From Escherichia coli (GTDB lineage: Bacteria > Pseudomonadota > Gammaproteobacteria > Enterobacterales > Enterobacteriaceae), in the NCBI RefSeq assembly GCF_003334335.1, contig NZ_QOWQ01000051.1: a DNA stretch of 21,033 bases; one strand, written 5' to 3'. Below, piece by piece: positions 4,057 through 21,033 of this stretch. Every line of letters starts with the position of its first letter. Within the stretch, counting starts at the first letter, position 1. The position numbers were made by a program, and so were the translations under genes. The notes beneath the pieces are model-generated. The model saw nothing but the letters and a program-made list of their open reading frames with translations, was not told the DNA's origin and made no database searches.

Positions 4057-4077
4057 AACGAAAAGCCCCTTACTTGT

Positions 4078-4094
4078 AGGAGGTCTGACCACTT
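4078..4094 (-). promoter_or_regulatory. Candidate FadR operator upstream of fadE
   Basis: On the minus strand this reads AAGTGGTCAGACCTCCT, close to the FadR box consensus with a TGGTC-N-GACC core. It sits about 30 nt upstream of the fadE start. Motif match by eye only. Confidence 0.4.
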
Positions 4095-4295
4095 GTGATG
4101 ATATGGTTGTAGTGGATGTAAAAACATTTAGCAATATGTTTACAATATAATTACAACAAAGCTCACATTGTTGCTGTTTTTATCCGCACTTCAGGTCAAA
4201 AAGTCCTGGTCATAGCACCTGCCCGTACTTCTCGCTTTTGGCGGTATCCGGTACACTGCATTTTGTCTATTACATTTATGCTGAAGGATATCCTC

Positions 4296-4874
4296 ATGTA
4301 CCAGGATCTTATTCGTAACGAACTGAACGAAGCGGCGGAAACGCTGGCTAACTTTTTAAAAGATGACGCCAATATTCACGCCATTCAGCGCGCGGCGGTC
4401 CTGTTAGCAGACAGCTTTAAAGCCGGTGGCAAAGTGCTTTCCTGCGGCAACGGCGGTTCCCATTGCGACGCTATGCACTTTGCCGAAGAGTTGACCGGTC
4501 GCTACCGTGAAAACCGTCCGGGCTACCCGGCGATTGCTATTTCTGACGTTAGTCATATTTCCTGCGTCGGTAATGATTTCGGTTTCAATGATATTTTCTC
4601 CCGCTACGTTGAAGCGGTAGGTCGCGAAGGCGATGTACTGCTGGGGATCTCCACCTCCGGTAACTCTGCAAACGTGATCAAAGCGATCGCAGCGGCGCGT
4701 GAGAAGGGAATGAAAGTGATCACCCTGACCGGTAAAGACGGCGGCAAAATGGCTGGCACGGCGGATATCGAAATTCGCGTACCGCACTTTGGTTATGCCG
4801 ACCGCATTCAGGAGATTCACATTAAAGTGATCCATATCCTGATCCAGTTGATTGAAAAAGAGATGGTTAAGTAA
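4296..4874 (+). CDS. gmhA: Sedoheptulose-7-phosphate isomerase (SIS domain), LPS core heptose biosynthesis
   Basis: Track ORF starts at 4263; the internal ATG at 4296 ([10 protein letters not shown]…) gives 192 aa, the length I recall for GmhA/LpcA. SD-like AAGGAT precedes it. Confidence 0.9.
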
Positions 4875-4880
4875 GTCTGG

Positions 4881-5017
4881 CGTAGGCCGGATAAGACGTT
4901 TACGCCGCATCCGGCATTTGTGCGCTGATGCCTGATGCGACGCTGACGCGTCTTATCATGCCTACAAATCTGTACGCGAACCGTAGGCCGAATAATGCGT
5001 TCACGCCGCATCCGACC
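4881..5017. repeat. REP/BIME cluster (three REP palindromes) between gmhA and yafJ
   Basis: Imperfect palindromes of the E. coli REP type: gtaggccggataagacgtttacgccgcatccggca, gcctgatgcgacgctgacgcgtcttatcatgcctac and a third copy at 4981-5016. Confidence 0.8.
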
Positions 5018-5079
5018 TGAAAATTCTTAAATCAATCTTCGCCGGGGGCCATGCGCTCCCGCTGTTGTGGAGGTTACCC

Positions 5080-5847
5080 ATGTGCGAATTGCTCGGGATG
5101 AGCGCCAACGTCCCTACCGATATCTGCTTTAGTTTCACCGGGCTTGTACAGCGTGGTGGTGGAACCGGGCCACATAAAGATGGCTGGGGCATTACCTTTT
5201 ACGAAGGTAAAGGCTGTCGCACATTTAAAGATCCACAACCCAGCTTTAATTCCCCCATCGCCAAACTTGTCCAGGACTACCCGATAAAATCCTGTTCGGT
5301 GGTGGCTCATATTCGCCAGGCTAATCGGGGCGAGGTGGCGCTGGAAAATACTCACCCATTTACCCGCGAGTTATGGGGGCGTAACTGGACTTATGCCCAT
5401 AACGGACAACTGACGGGCTACAAATCACTGGAAACCGGCAACTTCCGCCCGGTAGGCGAAACCGACAGCGAAAAAGCCTTCTGCTGGCTCCTGCATAAAT
5501 TAACGCAGCGTTACCCGCGCACACCGGGCAACATGGCGGCGGTATTTAAATATATCGCCTCACTGGCGGATGAACTGCGGCAGAAGGGCGTTTTCAACAT
5601 GCTGCTTTCGGACGGGCGCTATGTAATGGCGTATTGCTCGACTAATTTACACTGGATCACCCGCCGCGCGCCGTTTGGCGTGGCAACGTTGCTGGATCAG
5701 GATGTGGAAATCGACTTCAGCTCGCAGACCACACCGAATGATGTGGTCACGGTGATTGCAACACAGCCGCTGACGGGCAATGAAACCTGGCAAAAGATTA
5801 TGCCAGGCGAATGGCGCTTATTTTGCCTCGGGGAGCGTGTAGTTTGA
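5080..5847 (+). CDS. yafJ: Class II (Ntn-type) glutamine amidotransferase-like protein YafJ
   Basis: Track ORF starts at 5065; the ATG at 5080 gives MCELLGM… with Cys at position 2, the class II GATase nucleophile arrangement, and 255 aa. GGAGG SD at 5069-5073. Confidence 0.85.
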
Positions 5848-6713: not shown

Positions 6714-6992
6714 TTACCCAAAGAGCGCCGCGTGAGTTCCAGTTCTCTCAAATCGTAAAAGTTTATCGGTAAGTTTGTAAATCAGGATCCAGTCCGGTTC
6801 GACATGAGCATCGCGATAACCTTTCCATGAACCTTGCAGCGGGTGGTCTTTATAAACAGCTGGAAGCGGTAAAGTATTATTGATAAGAAGCGTCATAAGA
6901 TATTTCAATTTATTCATATCCTTATGACGCTTTTGTGCAAGTTTTACATCCTTTGAATATTGTCCCGAGTATTCAATATCCCTTTGAATCAT
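6714..6992 (-). CDS. yafQ: YafQ toxin (RelE-fold, ribosome-dependent mRNA interferase)
   Basis: 92 aa ORF MIQRDIEYSGQYSKDVKLAQKRHKD… lying 2 nt downstream of dinJ on the same strand. Recognised from memory as YafQ. Confidence 0.9.
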   Translation of the reverse strand: MIQRDIEYSGQYSKDVKLAQKRHKDMNKLKYLMTLLINNTLPLPAVYKDHPLQGSWKGYRDAHVEPDWILIYKLTDKLLRFERTGTHAALFG

Positions 6993-6994
6993 AT

Positions 6995-7255
6995 TTAAAT
7001 TCCTAATTTATCAAATAAATCATCGGCGTCTTTGGCCTTATGAACATCAATGCCAGCTTCGCTGTTTTTGATTGATTGAATGGTTAATTGATTAGGCTCG
7101 CGTAAATCAAACGGCAATGCCTTTTCACGCGCGACCTTTGTGAGGGTTATGCGAACCAGGTCAGAGATGGTCAGCCCCATCCCGGCCAGTACGTCCGCTG
7201 CCTGATTCTTCAGATCTTCATCGATTCGGGCGCGAACAAACGCGTTAGCAGCCAT
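6995..7255 (-). CDS. dinJ: DinJ antitoxin (RHH DNA-binding)
   Basis: 86 aa ORF MAANAFVRARIDEDLKNQAADVLAGMGLTISDLVRI…, immediately upstream of yafQ with a LexA box in its promoter. Confidence 0.9.
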   Translation of the reverse strand: MAANAFVRARIDEDLKNQAADVLAGMGLTISDLVRITLTKVAREKALPFDLREPNQLTIQSIKNSEAGIDVHKAKDADDLFDKLGI

Positions 7256-8389: not shown

Positions 8390-8887
8390 ATGTCTGAATA
8401 TCGTCGTTATTACATCAAGGGGGGAACATGGTTTTTCACGGTGAATTTACGAAATCGTCGAAGCCAACTTTTGACCACCCAGTACCAGATGCTCCGTCAC
8501 GCCATTATTAAAGTTAAGCGAGACAGGCCTTTTGAAATCAACGCCTGGGTCGTTTTGCCAGAGCATATGCACTGTATCTGGACATTACCTGAAGGCGATG
8601 ATGATTTTTCCTCGCGCTGGCGGGAAATTAAAAAGCAATTTACCCATGCTTGTGGATTGAAAAATATCTGGCAACCACGTTTTTGGGAGCACGCCATCCG
8701 CAATACCAAAGATTATAGGCATCATGTTGATTATATTTATATAAATCCAGTAAAGCATGGTTGGGTAAAGCAAGTGAGTGATTGGCCATTCTCAACGTTC
8801 CATCGCGATGTCGCGCGAGGGTTATATCCCATCGATTGGGCGGGGGACGTAACGGATTTTAGTGCCGGGGAGCGTATCATTTCATAA
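8390..8887 (+). CDS. rayT: REP-associated tyrosine transposase RayT (TnpA-REP, IS200/IS605 HUH family)
   Basis: 165 aa with the HUH motif (PEHMHCIW) and a C-terminal Tyr region. REP arrays flank it on both sides, the REPtron arrangement. Confidence 0.85.
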   Translation: MSEYRRYYIKGGTWFFTVNLRNRRSQLLTTQYQMLRHAIIKVKRDRPFEINAWVVLPEHMHCIWTLPEGDDDFSSRWREIKKQFTHACGLKNIWQPRFWEHAIRNTKDYRHHVDYIYINPVKHGWVKQVSDWPFSTFHRDVARGLYPIDWAGDVTDFSAGERIIS

Positions 8888-9110: not shown

Positions 9111-11204
9111 TTACATCAACGCCCCCATAATCTTCAACTCCAGCTCATCCGGCACTTCGTTATACGACAGCACATGCAGCCCCGGCGCAAACAACCTTGC
9201 ATAACGCGCCAGCAAAGGGCGCAGCTGCGGTGGCACCAGCAGCACCGGGTCTTTCCCCGCCGCTTTCATCTGCTCTTTCACCTGTGGCATCGTACTCTGG
9301 AACTGGTTGAGCATATTCGGATCGACCGGCACGCTGTCGAGCATCACTTTCCCGCCCTGTTGCGCCTGATTCACCACGTTGGTCAGCAGATTTTCCAGCT
9401 CATTATTCAGCGTATACACCGTCAGCTCCTGCTTGCGAACGAACGGATGGGTAATGCTGCGCCGCAATGCCAGGCGCACATCGGCCGCCAGCAGAATATG
9501 ATCTTTCGTCACCGTGCTACTGGCGACCAGCACGGTGGCGATGGTGACGATATCGCGCAGGGAAACGCCTTCGGTCAGCAGCGCCCGGTACACTTTCAGC
9601 AACTGGCTGTAATTGAGCGCCGCGCTCAAATCTTCCGCCAGACGCGGTGCCGTCGACGATAAACGGTTATGCAACTGCGTAATATCATCATAGTTAAACA
9701 AATCAGGAATATAGCTGCGCACAATCTTATTTACATGGGTAGCGATCACGCTGGCGCTGTCGATCACCTGATACCCCATATTCAGCGCCTTCGCTTTCTG
9801 CGCCGCCTGGATCCAGGTGACCGGCATCCCGTACGCCGGGTCGTTCCCCTGCACGCCGTCAATCTCGCCGTAGGTTTCGCTGGAGGGCAGGGCCATCAGT
9901 TTATCCGCCGGAATATCCGCTTCATCAGCCTTTATGCCGTTGATGAAAATGGCGTACTGACTGGGCTTAAGGCGGAAGTTTTCCCGAATGCGGATCTCCG
10001 GCAGCAGCACGCCGTTGCCGTCAGAAATCACCTGCCGCACGCCGCGAATCCGCTGGGTGAGCGGGTTACCCTGTGCTTTGTCCACCAGCGCCACCAGTTT
10101 GTAACCGAGGCTTAAACTGATAGGCTCGATCAGCGGAATGGTTTCCCAACTGACCTGCTGCTCGCTGGTTTCGGTGATGGTGCGGGTCAGCGTTTCGAGG
10201 CTTTTCTCTTCCGCCTCCGCCGCCAGCGGCTGTTTGCTCATCCGCCAGCCGGTAAAACCAAGCAGGGCGCTGAACAGCAAAAACGGCAGGTGCGGCATTC
10301 CCGGTACCACCGCCAGCACGAACATAATCCCGGTGGCGGTGTAGAGCACCGACGGGCTTGCCAGCAGCTGGTTACGCACGTCATGGGCGATATCGCCGTT
10401 GTCGCTGACGCGGGTGACGATAATCGCCGCCGCGGTGGAGAGCAGCAGGGAAGGGATCTGCGCCACCAGGCCGTCGCCGATGGTCATCAGCACATACTGC
10501 TGGAAGGCAGCATCGGCGCTCAGGTTGTATTTGAAGATCCCGATACAGACGCCGCCGATCAGGTTGATCGCCAGAATCATCATCCCGGCGATGGCGTCCC
10601 CGCGCACAAACTTCGATGCCCCGTCCATCGCGCCGTAGAAATCGGCCTCGCTGGCAACATCTTTACGCCGGGTTTGCGCCTGCGCCTGGTTGATCAATCC
10701 GGCGTTAAGATCGGCGTCAATCGCCATCTGTTTGCCGGGCATCGCGTCTAAGGTAAAGCGGGCAGAAACCTCGGAAATACGCTCGGCCCCTTTGGTGACG
10801 ACAATAAAGTTGATGATCATCAGGATGATAAACACCACGAAGCCGACGACAAAGTTGCCGCCGATCACCACCTGACCAAACGACTCAATCACCTTACCCG
10901 CCGCGCCCGCGCCGAGATGCCCGTGCAGCAGCACCACGCGCGTAGAAGCAACGTTAAGCGTCAGGCGCATTAAGGTGGTGATCAGCAAAATGGTCGGGAA
11001 CAGGCTGAATTCCAGCGGTCGTTTCGCCGACACCGCCACCAGCAGCACCATCACCGCCAGCACAATGTTGAAGGTGAACAGAATATCCAGCAGCGCAGGC
11101 GGCAGCGGCAAAATAACCATCGCCAGAATACACAGGATCACCAGCGGCACGCCGAGATTGCCGCCGCGCAGCAGCGCGAGGAACGATTTAGTTGTTTTCG
11201 CCAT
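9111..11204 (-). CDS. lfhA: Flagellar type III export apparatus protein, FlhA homolog (Flag-2 LfhA)
   Basis: 697 aa with N-terminal transmembrane segments and the FHIPEP signature region (VILPLPPALLDILFTFNIVLAVMVLL). A GAGGTG Shine-Dalgarno precedes the ATG. Clearly distinct in sequence from what I recall of E. coli Flag-1 FlhA. Confidence 0.85.
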   Translation of the reverse strand: MAKTTKSFLALLRGGNLGVPLVILCILAMVILPLPPALLDILFTFNIVLAVMVLLVAVSAKRPLEFSLFPTILLITTLMRLTLNVASTRVVLLHGHLGAGAAGKVIESFGQVVIGGNFVVGFVVFIILMIINFIVVTKGAERISEVSARFTLDAMPGKQMAIDADLNAGLINQAQAQTRRKDVASEADFYGAMDGASKFVRGDAIAGMMILAINLIGGVCIGIFKYNLSADAAFQQYVLMTIGDGLVAQIPSLLLSTAAAIIVTRVSDNGDIAHDVRNQLLASPSVLYTATGIMFVLAVVPGMPHLPFLLFSALLGFTGWRMSKQPLAAEAEEKSLETLTRTITETSEQQVSWETIPLIEPISLSLGYKLVALVDKAQGNPLTQRIRGVRQVISDGNGVLLPEIRIRENFRLKPSQYAIFINGIKADEADIPADKLMALPSSETYGEIDGVQGNDPAYGMPVTWIQAAQKAKALNMGYQVIDSASVIATHVNKIVRSYIPDLFNYDDITQLHNRLSSTAPRLAEDLSAALNYSQLLKVYRALLTEGVSLRDIVTIATVLVASSTVTKDHILLAADVRLALRRSITHPFVRKQELTVYTLNNELENLLTNVVNQAQQGGKVMLDSVPVDPNMLNQFQSTMPQVKEQMKAAGKDPVLLVPPQLRPLLARYARLFAPGLHVLSYNEVPDELELKIMGALM

Positions 11205-12327
11205 CCAGTTTAAGCACCTCTTTGGGAATGGAAATATGTCTGTTCAGGGCCGGGCGCGGCTGTGCACCCTCGCGCCAGTGTTTCATTTGCAGGACGTAGG
11301 TCAGAACGTGGGCGATGGCCCGGTAAAGCTGAAACGGAATTTGCTGGTTCACCTGGGTGGTGTAGTAAACCGAGCGCGCCAGTCGCGGGAACTCGACCAC
11401 TTCCACCTGATTCTCAGCGGCGACCTGGCGAATATAGAGGGCGATTTCATCGGTGCCTTTCGCCACCACAAACGGCGCGGCGGCGCGCGACGAGTCATAC
11501 TGCAACGCCACGGCGTAGTGGGTCGGGTTGGTGATCACCACGTTGGCTTTCGGCACCACTTTGCGAATTTGCCCCATCGCCAACTGCCGTTGCAGACGCC
11601 GCACGCGCGCCTTCACTTCCGGCTTGCCTTCCTGGTTTTTATACTCTTCTTTCAGCTCCTGTTTGGTCATCTTCAGCCCTTTGGTAAACAGGGCTTTCGC
11701 CAGCGGCACGTCGATTAACGCAAAGAAGATAAACAGGATGACAAAGTTGCGCATCACGCAGGCGTAGAGCGATAAACCCTCATTCATCGCCAGTTTGAAC
11801 GGTAGCGCCTGCAGGCCGAGAAAGGCGGCAAAGTTATTGTGCAGGCTTACCCACAGCATCACCAGCACCACCACCGACTTCACCGTCATCTTTCCCGTTT
11901 CCGCCAGATGTTCACTGGAAAACAGCCGCCCAATGCCTTTTAACGGGCTGATTTTGCTGAAATCCGGGAGGATTTTTTTCGGCAGAAACAGCCAGCCGCC
12001 GGGCACCAGCGAAGAGAGTAGCGCGGCAGCGGGCATCGGCAGCAAGGTGAGAATAAACTTGCCGAGTATTAACAGGTGATGGCGCAGAAACTGGCCGATC
12101 ACCTCCGGGTTATTAATCTCCTGCGCGTACTGATGCACGCTGATAAAACTCTCGCGCACAAAATCGGCATACCACGGGAAGCTGCTGGAGATCACCACAA
12201 ACGCCGCAAACAGGCTCGCCGCCAGCCCCATATCCTTCGAGCGCGGCAGTTGCCCCTCTTCACGCGCTTTACGCAGCTTTTGCGCCGAGGGTTTTTCTGT
12301 TTTTTCTTCGCTGCTGCTATCCGCCAT
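11188..12327 (-). CDS. lfhB: Flagellar export switch protein, FlhB homolog (Flag-2 LfhB)
   Basis: 379 aa with an FlhB-like N-terminus (…EKTEKPSAQKLRKAREEGQLPRSKD) and the conserved NPTH autocleavage motif (VVITNPTHYAVAL). Its stop overlaps the lfhA start by 17 nt. Confidence 0.85.
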   Translation of the reverse strand: MADSSSEEKTEKPSAQKLRKAREEGQLPRSKDMGLAASLFAAFVVISSSFPWYADFVRESFISVHQYAQEINNPEVIGQFLRHHLLILGKFILTLLPMPAAALLSSLVPGGWLFLPKKILPDFSKISPLKGIGRLFSSEHLAETGKMTVKSVVVLVMLWVSLHNNFAAFLGLQALPFKLAMNEGLSLYACVMRNFVILFIFFALIDVPLAKALFTKGLKMTKQELKEEYKNQEGKPEVKARVRRLQRQLAMGQIRKVVPKANVVITNPTHYAVALQYDSSRAAAPFVVAKGTDEIALYIRQVAAENQVEVVEFPRLARSVYYTTQVNQQIPFQLYRAIAHVLTYVLQMKHWREGAQPRPALNRHISIPKEVLKLDGENN

Positions 12328-13099
12328 AGTGACCTTTCAGCGCGTCGAGTTGCTGCAACACAAAATTCGCCAGATGCAGATAGTGATCCGGCAGGTTGTA
12401 GAGCAGGGTGGCAAAGCAGACCAGCCCCGCCAGCATGTTGATGGGAAAACCGAGTGAAAAAAGGTTCAGCGGCGGCGCAATGCGGTTGAGCAGGCCAAAG
12501 CAGCCCTGCACAATCAGCATGATAAAAGTGGTTGGCAGCGCCAGCAGCGATGCGGACGCCAGCACCCAGCTAAAGGCCAGCGCGATGGTGCGCAGGGTTT
12601 GCGGATGCAGCGCGTTGCCAATCGGCCAGTAGGTAAAGCCCTTATACAGCACACTCACCAGCAGCAGATGCCCGTCCATGGCAAAAAACAGCAGGATCGC
12701 GTAGACGTTGATGAGCTCCGCCAGCACGGTGGTCGATGCGCCACTGCTCGGGTCGTTCATCACCGCCATGCTCATCCCCATATTGAACGAGAGAATTTGC
12801 CCGGCCAGCTGTAGCGCCAGAAACAAAAACTGAAACATCAGCCCGAATAACATGCCCCATAAAATTTGCTCCACCGTCAGGATCAGGCTGTTGAGTGAAA
12901 GCAGGTCGTGGGGAATGGGATGCGGAATTAACGGCGTGATGATGATTGCCAGCGCCAGCGACAAAATAATCCGCACGCGCACGGTCAGGGCGCTGTTATC
13001 CAGCACTGGCACATAGCGCAGAAACGCCATAATGCGCACAAAGGGAAACCACAGCCCCAGCGCCAGATCCATCAGTTGCGTAACGTCGCTTGTGCGCAT
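12317..13099 (-). CDS. lfiR: Flagellar export gate protein, FliR homolog (Flag-2 LfiR)
   Basis: Polytopic membrane protein. The start at 13099 (MRTSDVTQLMDLALG…, 260 aa) sits 2 nt upstream of the lfiQ stop codon; the track offers an upstream start at 13150 (277 aa) that would lie inside lfiQ. Confidence 0.75.
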   Translation of the reverse strand: MRTSDVTQLMDLALGLWFPFVRIMAFLRYVPVLDNSALTVRVRIILSLALAIIITPLIPHPIPHDLLSLNSLILTVEQILWGMLFGLMFQFLFLALQLAGQILSFNMGMSMAVMNDPSSGASTTVLAELINVYAILLFFAMDGHLLLVSVLYKGFTYWPIGNALHPQTLRTIALAFSWVLASASLLALPTTFIMLIVQGCFGLLNRIAPPLNLFSLGFPINMLAGLVCFATLLYNLPDHYLHLANFVLQQLDALKGHYGG

Positions 13100-13100
13100 C

Positions 13101-13373
13101 TTAATGCACCAGCAGGGCGGCCTGGGTAAACAGGTGAATGCAGAGATCATGCAACTGGATAATCATCCATTTGCCGCACACGCCCAGCACCACCAGCGTG
13201 ACAATCAGCCTCGGCAAAAAGCTCAGGGTCTGTTCGTTAATCTGCGTTACCGCCTGGAACACGCTCACCAGCAGGCCGACCAGCAAACTCGGCACCACCA
13301 GTACCGAAACCAGCAAAATCACTACTTTTATGCCGCTGGCGACAATGTCGGCGGCAACGTCTACGGTCAACAT
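13101..13373 (-). CDS. lfiQ: Flagellar export gate protein, FliQ homolog (Flag-2 LfiQ)
   Basis: 90 aa with two hydrophobic helices, placed between the FliP and FliR homologs as in fliPQR operons. Confidence 0.8.
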   Translation of the reverse strand: MLTVDVAADIVASGIKVVILLVSVLVVPSLLVGLLVSVFQAVTQINEQTLSFLPRLIVTLVVLGVCGKWMIIQLHDLCIHLFTQAALLVH

Positions 13374-13375
13374 AA

Positions 13376-14128
13376 TCAGCCCAGCCCCAGCCCGCGAATG
13401 CTGGTGGTGAGCGTGCCGATGGTCAGCGACCAGCCGTCGATCAGCACAAACAGCATCAGCTTAAAGGGCAGCGAAACAATCAGCGGCGACAGCATCATCA
13501 TCCCCATCGCCATCAGTACGCTTGCGACAATCAGGTCGATAACCAGAAACGGGATGTAAATCATAAAGCCAATCTGGAAAGCGGTTTTCAGCTCGCTCAA
13601 CACATAGGCGGGCACCACGATAGAGAGATCCTGGTCGGCGGCATTGCCCTTCGCGCCTCCGATGGTCATGATTTGCGCCATCGCTTTTTTGTCGGTCTGC
13701 GCCAGCATAAAGCGTTTGAGTGGCGTCGCGGCGGTGCTTAACGCATCGGTCAGGGTAATCTGATCGTTTTCGAACGGCACTACTGCGTGGTCGTAAATAT
13801 TGAGCCAGATGGGGCGCATCACCAGCATGGTGAGGGAGAGCGCAATGCCAATCAGAATGCGGTTTGGCGGCGTTTGTTGCAGCCCTAGCGCCTGGCGCAG
13901 CAGCGACAGCACGATAATAAAGCGCGCAAAGCAGGTCATCATCAGCGCCATCGTCGGCAGCAAACCGACGAGGGTCATCAGAATCAGTACCTGAATTTTG
14001 ACGCTGTACTCCTGAGTGTTGCCGTGGGTGACCACGTTAAGCAGCGCAATATCGCCGCCCTGGGCGATTGCCAGCGGCGCAAGCGCCAGCAGCCCAAGGC
14101 CCAGCGTCAGTTGAGTGCGGCGTTTCAT
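13376..14128 (-). CDS. lfiP: Flagellar export gate protein, FliP homolog (Flag-2 LfiP)
   Basis: 250 aa with an N-terminal signal peptide (…LALAPLAIAQ) and a FliP-like transmembrane core. Its start overlaps the lfiN stop by 4 nt. Confidence 0.85.
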   Translation of the reverse strand: MKRRTQLTLGLGLLALAPLAIAQGGDIALLNVVTHGNTQEYSVKIQVLILMTLVGLLPTMALMMTCFARFIIVLSLLRQALGLQQTPPNRILIGIALSLTMLVMRPIWLNIYDHAVVPFENDQITLTDALSTAATPLKRFMLAQTDKKAMAQIMTIGGAKGNAADQDLSIVVPAYVLSELKTAFQIGFMIYIPFLVIDLIVASVLMAMGMMMLSPLIVSLPFKLMLFVLIDGWSLTIGTLTTSIRGLGLG

Positions 14129-14496
14129 GGTGCCAGGTCGTTGATATCGCGGGTGTTAAATTCCAGCACGCGCAGGCCGTACTTCTCGTTGACCACCACC
14201 ACTTCCGCTTTGCCCAGCAGGATATTGTTCACTTTAATATCCAGCGGCTCCCCGGCGAGTTTATCCAGCTCAATCACCGTGTCGTCGTCGATGTTAAGGA
14301 GGTCGGCTAACATGATCTCCACCGACGACACTTCCAGCGTTAAGGTCACCGGAATGCGTTTTAGCAGCGTCATCGAGTCGGAAAAACGGTCTTCCAGGCG
14401 GGTGACCAGCGTTTCAGCGTCGGCGGATTTTGCGACAGGCGCAACTTCATCGGTGAGGCCAAAATCCCCGGCTAAAATATCTTCTTGCTTACTCAT
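14125..14496 (-). CDS. lfiN: Flagellar motor switch / C-ring protein, FliN homolog (Flag-2 LfiN)
   Basis: SpoA-like C-terminal domain (…VTLTLEVSSVEIMLADLLNIDDDTVIELDKLAGEPLDIKVNNILLGKAEVVVV). The start at 14496 (MSKQEDI…) is chosen for coupling to the lfiM stop; the track's longest start is 14556. Confidence 0.75.
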   Translation of the reverse strand: MSKQEDILAGDFGLTDEVAPVAKSADAETLVTRLEDRFSDSMTLLKRIPVTLTLEVSSVEIMLADLLNIDDDTVIELDKLAGEPLDIKVNNILLGKAEVVVVNEKYGLRVLEFNTRDINDLAP

Positions 14497-15340
14497 GGCT
14501 ATTCTCATTTTTGCCCGCCAGCTCCGACAAAAACAGTTTGTCTTTGTCTTCCACAATCAGGGCGCTAAATAATTCAGATTGCCCAATCGCCACCGGGAAC
14601 GTTTCTCCCAGCGAGATGGGTAAAATATCCCCGGCTTTTATCTGCGTGAGATCCGCGACATTCATCGATAGCTCGGCGATTTTGACGTTCAGGGTCAGCG
14701 GCAGGGAGCGGATGATCTCTTTAATCAGGGCCGGTTTATTGACGGATTTCGCCACCTGCTGCGGTTTACTGTGCTCGCTGTGGCGGATCAGATTTAAAAT
14801 AAAATCGGTGTGGGCGTCGTCGAGCAAAATACGAAAACAGCTCTCTTCATCGCCCGCAAGGGTAAAGGTTAATTGATACGCCCAGTGGGTAATCACCGTG
14901 CTGCTGTCCAGCTTTAATTTCAGCGCAATACCGGAGGTTTGCAGATTAAATATCAGCGTGCAGATATCCAGCGCGAGTCGGTTCTTTAATCGTGTTTCGG
15001 TTTTGGTCGGCAGGCCGTTATGCGCTTTCGCCTCTTCAAGAGACGACTCCAGACCATAAAAATTGCCCAGCAGCATTAACAGCAAGGAGCGATCAATATC
15101 AAACGCCAGATGCCCGACCTGGGAAATCATTAGTTCAGCGTTTTTATTAATAATATCCATTTCGCAGCCAATCTTTTTTAAGGTGATATTGCTGCGATGC
15201 TTTTTGAGAAAGTAGCTGCCCAGATGCGAATCAATCACGTCAAAATTCCCCGTAAACAGGGTCGGCAGGTGATGGTAGGGGCGTCCGAGCCGATTACCTT
15301 CTAATTTAAAGATGCCTGGCGTTTTACTGTACTTCAGCAT
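14489..15340 (-). CDS. lfiM: Flagellar motor switch protein, FliM homolog (Flag-2 LfiM), short form
   Basis: 283 aa. The C-terminal region (…LTQIKAGDILPISLGETFPVAIGQSELF…) resembles the FliM SpoA-like domain. No LSQxEIDALL-type N-terminal peptide is present. Confidence 0.75.
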   Translation of the reverse strand: MLKYSKTPGIFKLEGNRLGRPYHHLPTLFTGNFDVIDSHLGSYFLKKHRSNITLKKIGCEMDIINKNAELMISQVGHLAFDIDRSLLLMLLGNFYGLESSLEEAKAHNGLPTKTETRLKNRLALDICTLIFNLQTSGIALKLKLDSSTVITHWAYQLTFTLAGDEESCFRILLDDAHTDFILNLIRHSEHSKPQQVAKSVNKPALIKEIIRSLPLTLNVKIAELSMNVADLTQIKAGDILPISLGETFPVAIGQSELFSALIVEDKDKLFLSELAGKNENSHE

Positions 15341-15485
15341 GGCTTACTTTCTCTGCTGTAATGGTATGGGCGATTTTGTGCACGCAAATCCGGCAGTGAC
15401 ACAAGGTGAGGTATTAAATAGAGGGGGAGTGAAAGGGGCAAATTATTAATAGGATGAAAAAATAATTAAATTATTAAAGGGCTAG

Positions 15486-15602
<117 letters not shown>

Positions 15603-15726
15603 ATGGATAACTCATTGTTTACCATAAAATAATATTTTTATTATCGTTTAATTCGAACTTGTTAATCCCGCCGGTGATACGCTTCACAATATCCTGTTTT
15701 CTGTCGCTACTGATATCGTTCACCCT

Positions 15727-16713
15727 ATGTCTGAACTTATTGCAACTGCCGCTTCCAGCATTAACGCTTTTACTCTGGCAAAGCGTGTCGCCGCATTTAA
15801 CGTGCCGGTGCTCATTCAGGGCGAAACCGGCGCGGGCAAAGAATGCGTGGCGAAATATATTCACACCGTAGCCTTTGGTGAAAATGATAACGCGCCCTAT
15901 ATCGGCGTGAACTGCGCAGCGATCCCGGAAAACATGCTGGAAGCTACATTATTTGGCTACGACAAAGGCGCATTTACCGGCGCAATTGCCAGTGTGCCAG
16001 GAAAAATGGAACTAGCGAATAACGGCACCTTATTACTCGATGAAATTGGCGATATGCCGCTGGCGCTACAGGCCAAAATATTACGCGTATTGCAGGAGCA
16101 ACAGGTTGAGCGATTAGGCAGCAACCGACAAATTAAACTCAATTTTCGCCTGATTGCCTGCACCAATAAAAACCTTGAACAGGAAGTGGCTGCCGGGCGT
16201 TTTCGTGAAGATCTCTATTATCGTCTGGCGGTTATTCCTATTACCATGCCGCCACTGCGTGAACGTCTGAACGATATTATTCCGCTGGCAGAGTCATTTA
16301 TAAAAAAGTACTCCACGGTGCTGGTGAAAAATATCACCCTTTCAGAATCTACCCGCCGGGCGCTGCTCAATTACCGCTGGCCCGGCAACGTGCGCCAGCT
16401 GGAGAACGCCATTCAGCGGGGAATGATTTTAAATCGCGACGGCGTGATTTACCCGGATGCCTTAGGCCTGCCGGAAACGGACGTTGCCGACCGCAGCGAA
16501 CTGCAATGGCCTGTTCAGCCCGCCGTCCACATTGCCGAAACCAGCGATTTGGGCCAGCACGGACGAAGCGCCCAGTATCAATATATCGCTGACCTGATGC
16601 GTAAATATCAGGGCAACCGCAGCAAAATCGCCGACCTGTTAGGCATTACCCCGCGCGCACTGCGCTATCGACTGGCCTCCATGCGCAAGCAAGGTATCGA
16701 AGTTTTCTCCTGA
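15727..16713 (+). CDS. lafK: Sigma54-dependent transcriptional activator (AAA+ plus HTH, no N-terminal regulatory domain), LafK-like
   Basis: 328 aa with Walker A GETGAGKE, the GAFTGA sigma54-contact loop, Walker B LLLDEIGDM and a C-terminal Fis-type HTH (…IADLLGITPRALRYRLASMRK). The AAA+ domain starts within the first few residues. An in-frame stop lies at 15649-15651 upstream. Confidence 0.85.
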   Translation: MSELIATAASSINAFTLAKRVAAFNVPVLIQGETGAGKECVAKYIHTVAFGENDNAPYIGVNCAAIPENMLEATLFGYDKGAFTGAIASVPGKMELANNGTLLLDEIGDMPLALQAKILRVLQEQQVERLGSNRQIKLNFRLIACTNKNLEQEVAAGRFREDLYYRLAVIPITMPPLRERLNDIIPLAESFIKKYSTVLVKNITLSESTRRALLNYRWPGNVRQLENAIQRGMILNRDGVIYPDALGLPETDVADRSELQWPVQPAVHIAETSDLGQHGRSAQYQYIADLMRKYQGNRSKIADLLGITPRALRYRLASMRKQGIEVFS

Positions 16714-16727
16714 CCCGGAAGTTAAAA

Positions 16728-17069
16728 ATGAGCATTACCACAATCAACAGCACCATGCAGGCGCAAATCATGCAGGACGTGCAGCGGATGCAGGCCAACG
16801 CCCAGGCGCCGGTGCTACCCGCCATGACCTTCAGTTCCACAGACCCGGACGTGTCGTTTAACCGCATTATGTACGGCGCGCTTGGTCATGTTGATCAGTT
16901 CCAGCAGGTGGCGGAGCTGCAGCAAACGGCTGTCGACACGGGCAAAAGTGATGACCTGGCAGGTGCGATGATCGCCAGCCAGCAGGCGTCGCTCTCTTTC
17001 TCCGCGCTGGTGCAGGTGCGCAATAAAATCGCCACCGGGTTTAACGACCTGATGAGTATGTCGATCTAA
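16728..17069 (+). CDS. lfiE: Flagellar hook-basal body protein, FliE homolog (Flag-2 LfiE)
   Basis: 113 aa small protein directly upstream of the FliF homolog, with a FliE-like C-terminal region (…ASQQASLSFSALVQVRNKIATGFNDLM). Confidence 0.75.
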   Translation: MSITTINSTMQAQIMQDVQRMQANAQAPVLPAMTFSSTDPDVSFNRIMYGALGHVDQFQQVAELQQTAVDTGKSDDLAGAMIASQQASLSFSALVQVRNKIATGFNDLMSMSI

Positions 17070-17073
17070 CCCT

Positions 17074-18720
17074 ATGAATGCACAAATAAAGAAGTTAACC
17101 CAGGCGTTTCCGGCGTTTCGACTGCGTCTCGTAGATAACAAACGCTGGGCGTTGATGGCGGGAGTGGGGCTTGCCGTGGCGGCGACGGCGATTATCGTCA
17201 GCGTGCTGTGGACCGGTAATCGCGGCTACGTTTCGCTCTACGGACGCCAGGAAAATCTGCCCGTGTCGCAGATTGTCACGGTGCTGGACGGCGAAAAGCT
17301 CAGCTACCGCATCGACCCGCAGAGCGGGCAGATTCTGGTGCCGGAAGATGAACTGTCGAAAACGCGTATGACCCTTGCCGCGAAAGGCGTGCAGGCGATA
17401 TTGCCCAGCGGCTACGAGCTGATGGACAAAGACGAAGTGCTCGGCAGCAGCCAGTTCGTGCAGAACGTGCGCTATAAACGCAGCCTCGAAGGGGAGCTGG
17501 CGCAGAGCATTATGTCGCTGGACGCGGTGGAGAGCGCGCGGGTGCATCTGGCGCTCAACGAAGAAAGCTCGTTTGTGGTCAGCGATGAGCCGCAAAACAG
17601 CGCCTCGGTGGTGGTGCGTCTGCACTACGGCGCGAAGCTGAATATGGACCAGGTGAACGCCATCGTGCATCTGGTTTCCGGCAGTATTCCGGGGCTGCAG
17701 GCCAGCAAAGTCAGCGTCGTCGATCAGGCGGGAAATCTGCTAACCGACGGCATTGGCGCGGGCGAGGCGGTCTCTGCCGCTACCCGTAAACGCGATCAGA
17801 TCCTCAAAGACATTCAGGACAAAACCCGCGCCAGCGTGGCGAACGTGCTGGATTCGCTGGTCGGCAGCGGGAATTACCGTGTCAGCGTGATGCCGGATCT
17901 CGACCTCAGCACCATCGACGAAACTCAGGAACACTACGGAGACGCGCCGAAAATAAACCGCGAAGAGAGCGTGCTGGACAGCGACACCAATCAGGTGGCG
18001 ATGGGTGTGCCCGGCTCTCTCAGCAACCGTCCGCCGGTTGCGGCGAATCAGATGACCAACGGCACGGAAGAAAATCGCTCGCCGGAAGCGTTATCCAAAC
18101 ACAGCGAAAGCAAGCGCGATTACTCTTACGACCGCAGCGTCCAGCATATTCAGCATCCCGGCTTTGCGGTGAAACGCCTCAACGTGGCGGTGGTGCTCAA
18201 TCAAAACGCCCCGGCGCTGAAAAACTGGAAGCCGGAACAGACCACGCAGCTTACCGCGTTGCTGAACAATGCCGCCGGGATCGACGCGCAACGTGGAGAT
18301 AACCTGACGCTTTCACTGCTTAACTTTGTCCCGCAGGTGGTCCCGGTCGAACCGGTGATCCCGCTGTGGAAAGATGACAGCGTGCTGGCCTGGGTGCGGC
18401 TGATTGGCTGCGGCCTGCTGGCGCTGTTGTTGCTGTTCTTTGTGGTGCGCCCGGTAATGAAACGCCTGACGGCGGTGCGTGCGCCGGTTATCACACCAGA
18501 ACCGGAAGCTGTCAGCGAACCGTGGATCGCTATGCCGGAAGAGGAGCGCAAAAACGTCGATCTGCCGTCGCTGCCCGGCGATGACAGCCTGCCTTCGCAG
18601 AGTTCCGGCCTCGAAGTGAAACTCGAGTTCCTGCAAAAACTGGCCATGAGCGACACCGATCGCGTAGCCGAAGTTCTCAGACAATGGATCACCAGCAATG
18701 AGCGAATTGACAACAAATAA
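17074..18720 (+). CDS. lfiF: Flagellar MS-ring protein, FliF homolog (Flag-2 LfiF)
   Basis: 548 aa with an N-terminal TM segment, a large periplasmic region and a second TM near the C-terminus (…LIGCGLLALLLLFFVV…). Length and topology fit FliF rather than the shorter injectisome SctJ. Confidence 0.85.
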   Translation: MNAQIKKLTQAFPAFRLRLVDNKRWALMAGVGLAVAATAIIVSVLWTGNRGYVSLYGRQENLPVSQIVTVLDGEKLSYRIDPQSGQILVPEDELSKTRMTLAAKGVQAILPSGYELMDKDEVLGSSQFVQNVRYKRSLEGELAQSIMSLDAVESARVHLALNEESSFVVSDEPQNSASVVVRLHYGAKLNMDQVNAIVHLVSGSIPGLQASKVSVVDQAGNLLTDGIGAGEAVSAATRKRDQILKDIQDKTRASVANVLDSLVGSGNYRVSVMPDLDLSTIDETQEHYGDAPKINREESVLDSDTNQVAMGVPGSLSNRPPVAANQMTNGTEENRSPEALSKHSESKRDYSYDRSVQHIQHPGFAVKRLNVAVVLNQNAPALKNWKPEQTTQLTALLNNAAGIDAQRGDNLTLSLLNFVPQVVPVEPVIPLWKDDSVLAWVRLIGCGLLALLLLFFVVRPVMKRLTAVRAPVITPEPEAVSEPWIAMPEEERKNVDLPSLPGDDSLPSQSSGLEVKLEFLQKLAMSDTDRVAEVLRQWITSNERIDNK

Positions 18721-19708
18721 GAGCAACAGCTACCTGGAACAGGCGGCGATCCTGCTGCTGTGTCTGGGCGAAGAGGCGGCGGCGACGGTGATGCAAAAAC
18801 TCAGCCGCGAAGAAGTAGTGCGCCTGAGCGAAAACATGGCGCGGCTTTCCGGCGTCAAAACCAGCATGGCGCGCAAAGTGATCAATAACTTCTTTGATGA
18901 GTTCCGCGAACAGAGCGGGATCAACGGCGCATCGCGATCCATGTTGCAGGGTATTCTCAACAAAGCCCTCGGCACCGAGATCGCCAGCAGCGTGATCAAC
19001 GGCATCTACGGCGATGAGATCCGCTCGCGGATGGCGCGCCTGCAATGGGTGGAACCACGCCAGCTGGCGATGCTGATCTCCGAAGAGCATTTGCAATTAC
19101 AGGCGGTGTTCCTCGCGTTTCTGACGTCGGAAATCTCGGCGGCGGTGCTCTCGTATCTCAATGAATCGGTGCAAAACGAAATTCTCTATCGGGTGGCGAA
19201 ACTCAACGACGTTAACCGCGACGTGGTGGATGAACTGGACAGGCTGATCGAACGCGGCCTGTCGGTGCTCTCTGAACATGGCTCGAAGGTGAAAGGCATC
19301 AAACAGGCGGCGGATATCGTCAACCGCTTCCAGGGTAACCAGCAGGTGATCCTCGACCAGATGCGCGAGCGCGACGAAGAGGTGCTGGAGCAGCTCCAGG
19401 ATGAGATGTACGACTTCTTTATCCTCAGCCGCCAGAACGAAGAGGTACGTCGACGTCTGCTCGACGAAGTGCCGATGGAAGACTGGGCGGTGGCGCTGAA
19501 AGGCACCGAAGCCCTGTTGCGGCGCTCGATTTACGCGGTAATGCCAAAACGTCAGGTGCAACAACTGGAAGCGATCACCGCGCGCCTGGGGCCGGTGCCG
19601 GTCAGCCGTATCGAACAGATCCGCCGCGAAATCATGGGCATCGCCCGTGAACTGGAAGAGGCGGGCGAAATTCAGCTACAGCTCTTTGCGGAACAGACGG
19701 CGGAGTAA
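18698..19708 (+). CDS. lfiG: Flagellar rotor protein, FliG homolog (Flag-2 LfiG)
   Basis: 336 aa, alignable by eye to FliG throughout (ILLLCLGEEAAATVMQKLSREEV…; …EAGEIQL at the C-terminus). Overlaps the lfiF 3' end by 23 nt. Confidence 0.85.
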   Translation: MSELTTNKSNSYLEQAAILLLCLGEEAAATVMQKLSREEVVRLSENMARLSGVKTSMARKVINNFFDEFREQSGINGASRSMLQGILNKALGTEIASSVINGIYGDEIRSRMARLQWVEPRQLAMLISEEHLQLQAVFLAFLTSEISAAVLSYLNESVQNEILYRVAKLNDVNRDVVDELDRLIERGLSVLSEHGSKVKGIKQAADIVNRFQGNQQVILDQMRERDEEVLEQLQDEMYDFFILSRQNEEVRRRLLDEVPMEDWAVALKGTEALLRRSIYAVMPKRQVQQLEAITARLGPVPVSRIEQIRREIMGIARELEEAGEIQLQLFAEQTAE

Positions 19709-19711
19709 CCC

Positions 19712-20422
19712 ATGACCATTGAAACACTGCGCGGGCGCTATCGCCTGCACCGCTTCCCGCCGCGCCAGCGTGCGGTGACCGGAGAACCGCTCACCGCCAG
19801 CATTAGCGCCGCCGATTACCAGCGCCAGTTGATGGACGGTTTTCAGGAAGGGCTGCAAAAAGGTTTTGCTCAGGGAATGACCGAAGGTCAGGAGCAGGGC
19901 TTTAGCGAAGGTCATCAGCAAGGTTTTGCCGAGGGGCGACGCCAGGGCTACACCGAAGGCAGTCTCGCCGGGCAGCAGGAAGGGCGCAAACAGTTTGTTG
20001 AGGCGGCGCAGCCGCTGGAAGCCATCACCGGTAAAGTGAACGACTTTCTCGCCCATATCGAACGTAAACAGCGGGAAGATTTGCTGCAACTGGTGGAAAA
20101 GGTGACGCGGCAGGTGATCCGCTGCGAACTGGCGCTGCAACCGACGCAGTTGCTGGCGCTGGTGGAAGAGGCGCTGGCGGCCTTCCCGGCGATGCCGGAA
20201 ACCCTGCAAGTGATGCTGAGTACGGAAGAGTTTAACCGCCTGCGCGACGCGGTGCCGGAAAAGGTCAGCGAATGGGGGCTGACGCCTTCGCCGGATCTGC
20301 CACCGGGCGAATGCCGGGTGATCACCGACAAATCCGAACTGGATATCGGCTGCGAGCATCGCCTTGAACAATGCATGACCGCGCTGAAAGAAACACTCAC
20401 GCCGGAGTCGCAGGGTGAGTGA
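19712..20422 (+). CDS. lfiH: Flagellar export ATPase regulator, FliH homolog (Flag-2 LfiH)
   Basis: 236 aa, positioned between the FliG and FliI homologs, with an N-terminal run of GxxxG repeats typical of FliH/YscL proteins. Confidence 0.75.
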   Translation: MTIETLRGRYRLHRFPPRQRAVTGEPLTASISAADYQRQLMDGFQEGLQKGFAQGMTEGQEQGFSEGHQQGFAEGRRQGYTEGSLAGQQEGRKQFVEAAQPLEAITGKVNDFLAHIERKQREDLLQLVEKVTRQVIRCELALQPTQLLALVEEALAAFPAMPETLQVMLSTEEFNRLRDAVPEKVSEWGLTPSPDLPPGECRVITDKSELDIGCEHRLEQCMTALKETLTPESQGE

Positions 20423-20956
20423 TTTTTCTGCGTTCGATAACGCCCTGCGCTCGCTGGAGTCGATCCCGCTGGCCCGCGTCGCCGGGCGGCTGGTGCGCCT
20501 TAACGGCATCCTGCTGGAGAGTGTCGGCTGCCCGCTAATGACCGGGCAGCTGTGCCGCATCGAAAGTGCCAATCACACGCTGATCGACGCGCAGGCCGTG
20601 GGCTTTAATCGCGACATCACCTATTTAATGCCGTTTAAACAGCCGGTCGGCCTGATGGCAGGCGCACGCGTCTTCCCGGAAGAAAAAGCCCACGACATCC
20701 TGATAGGCGAAAGCTGGTTAGGCCGCGTGGTGAATGGCCTCGGCGAACCGCTGGATGGCAAAGGCCGCCTGAACGGCAACGACCTTCTGCCGCCGTTGCC
20801 GCCCTCGGTTAATCCCTTAACTCGTCGTTCGGTAGACGAACCGCTGGACGTGGGCGTGAAAGCGATCAACGGCCTGCTGACCATCGGCAAAGGCCAGCGC
20901 GTCGGACTAATGGCAGGCAGCGGCGTCGGGAAAAGCGTGCTGCTGGGGATGATCCC
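20415..20956 (+). pseudogene. lfiI: Flagellum-specific ATPase FliI homolog (Flag-2 LfiI), 5' fragment truncated by IS186
   Basis: GTG start overlapping lfiH by 8 nt. FliI-like N-terminal domain and Walker A GSGVGKSVLLGM are present, then the reading frame runs into IS186 terminal sequence at about 20957. Only about 180 of an expected roughly 440-450 codons are present. Confidence 0.8.
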
Positions 20957-21033
20957 CATAAGCGCTAACTTAAGGGTTGTGGTATTACGCCTGATATGAT
21001 TTAACGTGCCGATGAATTACTCTCACGATAACT
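20957..21033 (+). mobile_element. IS186 (IS4 family) left end with the start of its transposase; element continues beyond the window
   Basis: The terminal sequence cataagcgctaacttaagggttg… matches the IS186 inverted repeat as I remember it. An ATG at 21012 opens MNYSHDN…, the IS186 transposase N-terminus. The preceding host sequence GGGGATGATCCCC fits the IS186 G-run/C-run target preference. Confidence 0.8.

Follow-up and report, generated by a model that had tools for sequence, protein, structure and literature searches.

Overlapping stop and start codons in the Flag-2 locus

The window analyzed here is a 21,033-nt stretch of the Escherichia coli chromosome (contig NZ_QOWQ01000051.1) that carries the left part of a Flag-2 locus, a secondary flagellar system. 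In its two divergent sets of basal-body and export-apparatus genes, which are organized into a putative leftward and a putative rightward operon, neighboring genes overlap at six junctions. These start/stop overlaps are genuine and evolutionarily maintained, and translational coupling would be their likeliest consequence. The junctions are listed below, with spacing in nt and negative values for overlaps.

lfhB/lfhA: 11188-11204, - strand, spacing -17
lfiR/lfhB: 12317-12327, - strand, spacing -11
lfiQ/lfiR: - strand, spacing +1 (TAAgATG)
lfiP/lfiQ: - strand, spacing +2
lfiN/lfiP: 14125-14128, - strand, spacing -4 (ATGA)
lfiM/lfiN: 14489-14496, - strand, spacing -8 (ATGAGTAA)
lafK/lfiE: + strand, spacing +14
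lfiE/lfiF: + strand, spacing +4
lfiF/lfiG: 18698-18720, + strand, spacing -23
lfiG/lfiH: + strand, spacing +3
lfiH/lfiI: 20415-20422, + strand, spacing -8 (GTGAGTGA)

Direct reading of the sequence recovered every overlap length, and the 1-nt gap between lfiQ and lfiR, that an earlier sequence-only reading had listed, and the annotation of the Prokaryotic Genome Annotation Pipeline (PGAP) agreed. The range in which that reading had placed them (12317-20422) nevertheless misses the lfhB/lfhA overlap at 11188-11204, which lies to its left. Spacings between -8 and +6, a published signature predictive of termination-reinitiation (PMC10666635), occurred at seven of the 11 junctions (-8, -4, +1, +2, +4, +3, and -8), the values outside it being -11, -17, -23, and +14. 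The same range holds 707 of 2,987 co-directional gene pairs (24%) in E. coli K-12 (PMC10666635). Compared with these published counts, in which operonic and non-operonic pairs are mixed, the Flag-2 proportion had a binomial P of 0.005, and three of the other junctions were longer overlaps. The pattern is typical for operons encoding multi-subunit machines, and is expected for a flagellar operon because E. coli genes for heteromeric-complex subunits show a 4.5-fold enrichment of short spacings (-8 to +10; PMC10666635). The overlaps of -8, -11, -17, and -23 were all in the 3n+2 phase, the commoner phase of overlaps (PMC10666635).

Conservation of the overlaps

Relatives of LfiP were aligned, 80 loci were fetched from species-representative genomes, and 14 genes were located in each locus by tblastn. 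The Flag-2 set of ten comprised the E. coli reference locus and nine fetched Enterobacterales loci, from Pseudocitrobacter, Citrobacter (two loci), RIT691, Pseudescherichia, Mangrovibacter, Kluyvera, Enterobacter, and Rosenbergiella. Overlap conservation in other Flag-2 loci, which the sequence-only reading had proposed as a check, was found at all six junctions in nine or ten of the ten loci.

M/N: overlapping in 9/10 Flag-2 loci, spacing -8
N/P: overlapping in 10/10 Flag-2 loci, ATGA (-4)
R/B: overlapping in 10/10 Flag-2 loci, spacing -1 to -20
B/A: overlapping in 10/10 Flag-2 loci, spacing -8 to -17
F/G: overlapping in 10/10 Flag-2 loci, spacing -23 to -32
H/I: overlapping in 10/10 Flag-2 loci, spacing -4 to -23

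At these six sites no spacer longer than 6 nt was present at any junction in the Flag-2 set, while P/Q, Q/R, K/E, E/F, and G/H remained non-overlapping, bar a single -1 case each at P/Q and Q/R. Alignments revealed that the start codon and the bases preceding it are fixed and that the upstream stop codon shifts. Orthologues with clear spacers and independent Shine-Dalgarno (SD) sequences, which would speak against the overlaps, were not found in the ten Flag-2 loci, since starts stay fixed, the upstream stop moves and the overlaps are kept. In most loci no candidate start before the conserved N-terminus falls clear of the upstream gene, and overlap conservation therefore does not hinge on the rule by which starts were picked.

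In polar-type clusters, which contain fliO, only the F/G and H/I overlaps were kept, and spacers at B/A and G/H exceeded 100 nt. Clusters of the lateral or Flag-2 type, which lack fliO, were much more compact, with flhB/flhA and fliG/fliH overlapping or a few nt apart, compared with typically >100 nt in polar-type clusters (L038-L081 versus L002-L036).

Start codons

The annotation used was that of the record of strain EC416, converted to window coordinates; positions 1-20957 of the window aligned to EC416 with one mismatch (reported identity 100.0%). Starts and stops of the Flag-2 genes agreed exactly between the sequence-only reading and RefSeq/PGAP. All genes listed here are supported by PGAP.

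lfhA: 9111-11204, - strand, FlhA-like export gate; ATG at 11204, 17 nt inside lfhB
lfhB: 11188-12327, - strand, FlhB-like; ATG at 12327, 11 nt inside lfiR
lfiR: 12317-13099, - strand, FliR-like; ATG 1 nt past the lfiQ stop
lfiQ: 13101-13373, - strand, FliQ-like; start 2 nt past the lfiP stop
lfiP: 13376-14128, - strand, FliP-like; ATGA overlap with lfiN
lfiN: 14125-14496, - strand, FliN-like; ATG at 14496, 8 nt inside lfiM (ATGAGTAA)
lfiM: 14489-15340, - strand, FliM-like; first gene of the leftward operon
lfiM-lafK divergent intergenic region: 15341-15726, no strand, 386 bp of lower G+C content; presumed site of the promoters
lafK: 15727-16713, + strand, sigma-54 interaction domain; heads the rightward operon
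lfiE: 16728-17069, + strand, FliE-like; 14 nt past lafK
lfiF: 17074-18720, + strand, FliF-like, MS ring; C-terminal tail ...RQWITSNERIDNK read across the lfiG start
lfiG: 18698-19708, + strand, FliG-like; ATG 23 nt inside lfiF, without SD
lfiH: 19712-20422, + strand, FliH-like; 3 nt past lfiG, with a GGAG SD
lfiI, 5' part only: 20415-20957, + strand, FliI-like ATPase; GTG start 8 nt inside lfiH
IS186/IS421 (IS4 family), left end: 20958-21033, + strand; transposase oriented as lfiI

There was little freedom for alternative starts. The reading frames of the overlapping genes open 3-60 nt upstream and the next start codon lies 54-96 nt downstream, inside conserved N-termini, so most overlapping starts are the sole start codon from the opening of the frame to the conserved N-terminus. 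The lfhB frame opens 9 nt upstream of its ATG, with the next start 96 nt downstream; lfhA and lfiP each have a single ATG and no further start for 54 and 93 nt, respectively, and no start follows the GTG of lfiI for 78 nt. In lfiG, the ATG at 18698 is followed 9 nt on by a TTG, also overlapping lfiF, and then by a start 90 nt beyond; in loci L001-L009 this ATG was listed as the sole start of the open frame. Among three candidate starts of lfiN, the ATG at 14496 alone was conserved in other genera, and an alternative ATG at 14508 occurred in E. coli and Pseudocitrobacter only. The lfiR ATG stood straight after the lfiQ stop in all ten Flag-2 loci. A longer lfiR open reading frame (ORF) starting at 13150 was considered and found unsupported, as 13099 is the conserved start and 13150 is not. 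Together with the PGAP match and the conservation in orthologues, these results uphold the starts chosen by the sequence-only reading, including 14496 for lfiN and 13099 for lfiR.

An origin of the overlap pattern in start choice is thus unlikely. If the true starts were located beyond the upstream stops, and the overlaps arose from picking the longest or most upstream start, this would agree with the inclination of gene finders toward upstream starts and with the alternative in-frame starts close by in lfiN and lfiR. Yet for lfhA, lfhB, lfiP, lfiG, and lfiI the next start would cut away N-terminal residues conserved across orthologues, the annotated starts of lfiR and lfiN are not those of the longest ORFs, and all candidate starts overlap in most orthologous loci, so that such an annotation artefact is very improbable.

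Signals at the start codons

SD sequences were scored as anti-SD duplex energies (dG) across the ten Flag-2 loci. An SD-like motif inside the upstream gene preceded lfhA in ten of ten loci, lfiQ in nine, lfhB and lfiH in seven each, and lfiI in six, compared with a background of 15% at random in-gene positions. The motif of lfhA (AAGAGGT, dG about -7) was the strongest and most conserved of the cluster, and lfhB had a conserved AAGG/GAGG motif before its start. No SD-like motif was found in any genus of the set for lfiN, lfiP (dG -1.5), lfiF, lfiG, lfiM, and lafK.

The predicted openness of the start regions was above the 70th percentile of the in-gene background for nine of 13 starts, with lfiR and lfiI at the 26th-37th percentiles. 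Unmasking of hidden starts by the upstream ribosome was rejected as a general model, most overlapped starts being more open than the in-gene background; open start regions fit real initiation sites and argue against such unmasking. The start of lfiQ, with a predicted probability of being unpaired of 0.15, was far more paired than any other start of the cluster, and structure prediction singles out lfiP/lfiQ (13373-13395) as the only place where an upstream ribosome could plausibly unmask the start. The lfiQ start is situated within a G-rich repeat, GGGCTGGGGCTGGGC.

In the ten codons that precede overlapped starts, synonymous third positions ranked at the 80th-95th percentile of their genes. 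At P/Q and G/H, which do not overlap, the same measure was at the 11th-21st percentile. The signal is suggestive and comes from 3-8 informative codons per junction.

The fliF/fliG junction

Judged from sequence comparison, the overlap at fliF/fliG, the most striking of the junctions, long predates Flag-2 and is ancestral to very different flagellar systems. An overlapping fliG start was present in 59 of the 62 loci sampled. A motif search found the conserved FliF C-terminal Trp codon in 35 loci, and in 31 of these the fliG ATG was 13 nt downstream of that codon's first base. The junction in the window (18685-18720) has the same 13-nt offset. In E. coli Flag-1 the distance is 16 nt, one codon more, and in polar loci with a -8 overlap, where the Trp was missed by the motif search, a hand count gave 13 nt again. 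Overlap length varied from -8 to -38 and was set solely by how far the FliF tail extends, with the position of the fliF stop varying; on this comparison the Flag-2 value of -23 is the ancestral start plus a five-codon extension of the FliF tail. Apparent fliF/fliG gaps in Pseudomonas-type loci were rejected, as the start rule had skipped the conserved overlapping ATG.

The polar fliF and fliG coding regions of Vibrio alginolyticus also overlap, and deletion of a single base before the fliG ATG yields a FliF-FliG fusion (PMC10941966). The geometry is that of Flag-2, but the overlap is short, the fusion losing two FliF residues, compared with 23 nt in Flag-2. A literature search found nothing relevant on experimental translational coupling of fliF/fliG.

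Proposed translational coupling and alternative explanations

In the mechanism proposed here, a downstream start embedded in or abutting the 3' end of the upstream gene would leave the ribosome that finishes the upstream protein at or near the next start. Termination-reinitiation could then serve the SD-less starts near an upstream stop, namely lfiN (-8), lfiP (-4), lfiR (+1), and lfiF (+4), while initiation at lfhB, lfhA, lfiI, lfiH, and lfiQ would be assisted by their SDs, perhaps aided by the upstream ribosome holding the site open; an embedded SD could make the output of the downstream gene exceed that of the upstream one. The outcome would be a co-ordinated synthesis of subunits in fixed ratios that are not equimolar. 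At the long overlaps (-11, -17, and -23) the start would be locked and the upstream stop would drift downstream, lengthening a poorly conserved C-terminal tail. Geometry makes coupling likely at the SD-less junctions with spacings of -4, -8, +1, and +4, because short-overlap pairs were strictly coupled in 13 of 14 tested cases (PMC6728339).

Several points weigh against coupling as the reason for the overlaps. We infer it at the Flag-2 junctions from spacing and geometry alone, few codons are informative for the synonymous-site signal, and orthologue starts were chosen by homology to the E. coli proteins, a rule that probably chooses the wrong starts for lfiH and lfiE in Kluyvera and Enterobacter, whose loci have an ATG soon after the upstream stop (3 nt for lfiH). 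Overlap length differs between genera, and therefore no particular length is selected, and polar flagella work with B/A and G/H more than 100 nt apart. Reporter constructs tested systematically show a coupling efficiency that declines faster with overlap than with spacing and is nil at -25 nt (PMC12548453). Because coupling fades in this way, lfiF/lfiG (-23, no SD) and probably lfhB/lfhA (-17) are weak candidates for reinitiation, and coupling there is doubtful; lfhA, given its own strong SD, may initiate de novo.

The sequence-only reading had suggested stoichiometric co-expression. Synthesis in fixed ratios is plausible, but synthesis in equimolar amounts is implausible. Published structures contain FliP5, FliQ4, FliR1, FlhB1, FlhA9, about 34 each of FliF and FliG, about 34 FliM, about 100 FliN (about three per FliM), FliH12, and FliI6, so that only FliF/FliG and FliR/FlhB are 1:1 pairs. 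Since most known ratios of flagellar subunits depart from 1:1, at most fixed-ratio synthesis can be argued. One may speculate that SD strength tunes the ratios on top of coupling, since the strongest embedded SD stands before lfhA (~9-fold excess over FlhB) and the weakest before lfiP, whose product is required in far smaller amounts than FliN.

The same architecture could also be frozen and have no coupling function, if starts became embedded long ago, stops drift neutrally and each gene initiates independently, from its own SD or from an unstructured A-rich site. Such a history would account for the widely varying overlap lengths of orthologues around a fixed start, and it agrees with start regions predicted to be accessible unaided, with the SDs of lfhA, lfhB, and lfiI, with the poor coupling of long overlaps in reporter studies (PMC12548453), and with the long spacers on which related polar systems manage. 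It is nonetheless rather unlikely, given that lfiN, lfiP, lfiG, and lfiF, without an SD in any of the ten loci, would initiate poorly alone, that the six overlapping Flag-2 sites never loosen to a spacer longer than 6 nt, and that the E. coli short-overlap pairs tested are nearly always coupled (PMC6728339). More improbable is that the overlaps serve co-translational assembly in cis instead of expression level, the N-domain of FliG, for example, emerging beside the C-terminal tail of FliF. The fixed position of the fliG ATG relative to the FliF Trp codon (31 of 35 loci with the motif), the binding of the FliF C-terminus to the FliG N-terminus (PMC10941966), and the enrichment of overlapping pairs for complex subunits (PMC10666635) all fit this idea. 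However, FliF and FliG assemble both as engineered fusions and when expressed separately, which makes expression in cis non-obligatory (see also PMC10941966), and overlaps between non-interacting neighbors such as lfiN and lfiP would be left unaccounted for.

A related proposal, for which the chances are slim, is that the SD-less fliG start is an obligatory hand-off, in which the ribosome ending FliF would re-initiate backwards on fliG and the FliG N-domain would fold in cis against the tail of FliF. The 13-nt offset of this start from the Trp codon is shared by Flag-2, lateral and some other systems, and 8 to 38 nt of fliF overlap it. On this proposal, efficient coupling would occur in natural sequences at -23 to -38, where synthetic reporters show no coupling.

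Comparison with known systems

The Flag-2 junctions resemble the stop/start-overlap pairs surveyed by Huber et al. (2019, PMC6728339), in the 2023 follow-up (PMC10666635) and in the review of Brown and Wade (2025, PMC12548453) in that the genes are co-directional and encode subunits of one machine. They also share the motifs ATGA (-4) and NTGNNTRA (-8) and, for long overlaps, the commoner 3n+2 phase. Unlike in the surveyed reinitiation pairs, coupling in Flag-2 is deduced from geometry, and the Flag-2 spacings of -11, -17, and -23 fall outside the predictive range of -8 to +6.

E. coli K-12 Flag-1 (fliFGHIJK, fliLMNOPQR, and flhBAE) has homologous genes in the same order, with spacings of -8 at fliF/G, -8 at fliG/H, -1 at fliH/I, -4 at fliJ/K, -4 at fliM/N, -1 at fliO/P, -8 at flhB/A, and -1 at flhA/E; its overlapping pairs have already been tabulated (PMC10666635, supplement). 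In contrast to Flag-1, Flag-2 is without fliO, so that lfiN overlaps lfiP directly, and its fliR-type and flhB-type genes are contiguous, so that lfiR overlaps lfhB. The Flag-2 overlaps are longer at F/G (-23) and B/A (-17), and G/H is +3 instead of -8.

Lateral laf clusters of Vibrio, Aeromonas, and Photobacterium, and the fliO-less clusters of Pseudomonas and beta-proteobacteria, share the divergent fliMNPQR-flhBA / lafK-fliEFGHIJ layout. In most of these lateral-type loci M/N, N/P, R/B, F/G, and H/I are overlapped or abutting, but overlap lengths differ from those of Flag-2 (R/B, for example, is -4 or -8 and F/G is -11 to -38), and B/A is often a few to about 60 nt apart.

The Flag-2 overlaps are ordinary tight packing of flagellar operons, a kind of feature that has already been catalogued, and current understanding of flagellar gene expression is unchanged by these findings. 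As a comparative example, they illustrate how fixed starts and wandering upstream stops account for longer overlaps. In practice, embedded starts must be preserved when Flag-2 genes are deleted or tagged, as the next gene would otherwise be disrupted, and an insertion or frameshift in either operon is likely to have polar effects.

Insertion sequence in lfiI

An insertion sequence (IS), IS186/IS421, splits lfiI at 20957/20958, just past the Walker A codons and in the same orientation as lfiI, and only 76 nt of its left end (20958-21033) are within the window. Among 5,426 complete E. coli genomes, one (TUM14664) had an insertion at this lfiI site. There, the flanks are 1,349 bp apart, a distance that includes a 12-bp duplication of the target, GGGATGATCACC, and the inverted ends of the element match (positions 4058-5460 of locus L085); the PGAP product of the element is an IS4-like IS421 family transposase. 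The TUM14664 copy thus has the terminal inverted repeat, the length of ~1.34 kb, and the target-site duplication in a G/C-flanked site that define IS186/IS421. Relative to the intact allele and to TUM14664, the window has an A to C change at 20955, by which the flank becomes palindromic (GGGGATGATCCCC); this could reflect either a separate insertion event at a hot spot or a base change that accompanied insertion.

With lfiI split by IS186, the Flag-2 locus of this strain is not intact, and the system is probably dead here. Transposase insertions are common in Flag-2 loci (PMC6993521). The statement of the sequence-only reading that IS186 would affect downstream genes is true for lfiI, lfiJ (lfiI/lfiJ spacing +2) and what follows, but trivial with respect to the overlaps, as the element is downstream of every one listed.

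Promoter and terminator scans

No match to the sigma-54 -24/-12 pattern (TGGCAC-N5-TTGCW, up to 3 mismatches) was found within 15096-15792, which covers the lfiM-lafK region. Across the window, sigma-54 matches were fewer than in shuffled sequences, and a looser pattern gave a single match with four mismatches at 15367. LafK is a sigma-54-type activator, and class 2 operons of lateral flagella elsewhere are reported to be sigma-54-dependent. The lfiM-lafK region contained one weak sigma-70-like site (15604-15633, + strand). Terminator-like sites were not in excess (14 versus 15.2 in shuffled sequence), and the overlapping genes give no space for intergenic signals.

Locus layout and neighboring sequences

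The window holds yafV, fadE, dinJ-yafQ, and rayT, followed by the left part of the Flag-2 locus. PGAP products revealed two divergent gene sets with the content and order of Flag-2, and tblastn recovered an identical order in the nine other Enterobacterales loci; the layout is that of cluster 1 of the Enterobacterales Flag-2 locus as defined in PMC6993521. No fliO is present between lfiN and lfiP, and the fliE-J set is headed by lafK, the product of 15727-16713 being annotated as a sigma-54 interaction domain protein.

Some LfiP relatives (P0001, P0017, and P0051; 96-98% identical) are 280-342 amino acids long and contain both FliQ and FliP Pfam domains; they are probably calls fused across the 2-nt lfiP/lfiQ gap by frameshifts or assembly errors. 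Just to the left of lfhA, at 6714-7255 and 8390-8887, the yafQ-dinJ toxin-antitoxin pair and rayT, a transposase gene associated with repetitive extragenic palindromic (REP) sequences, are arranged as in other E. coli, with nothing unusual. At the far left (positions 1-77), most E. coli genomes match the window from position 78 only, and in EC416 a transposase gene of IS1414 (IS256 family) adjoins this part and ends near window position 5. The left edge of the window thus appears to lie within the end of another insertion sequence, the second one here, beside yafV.

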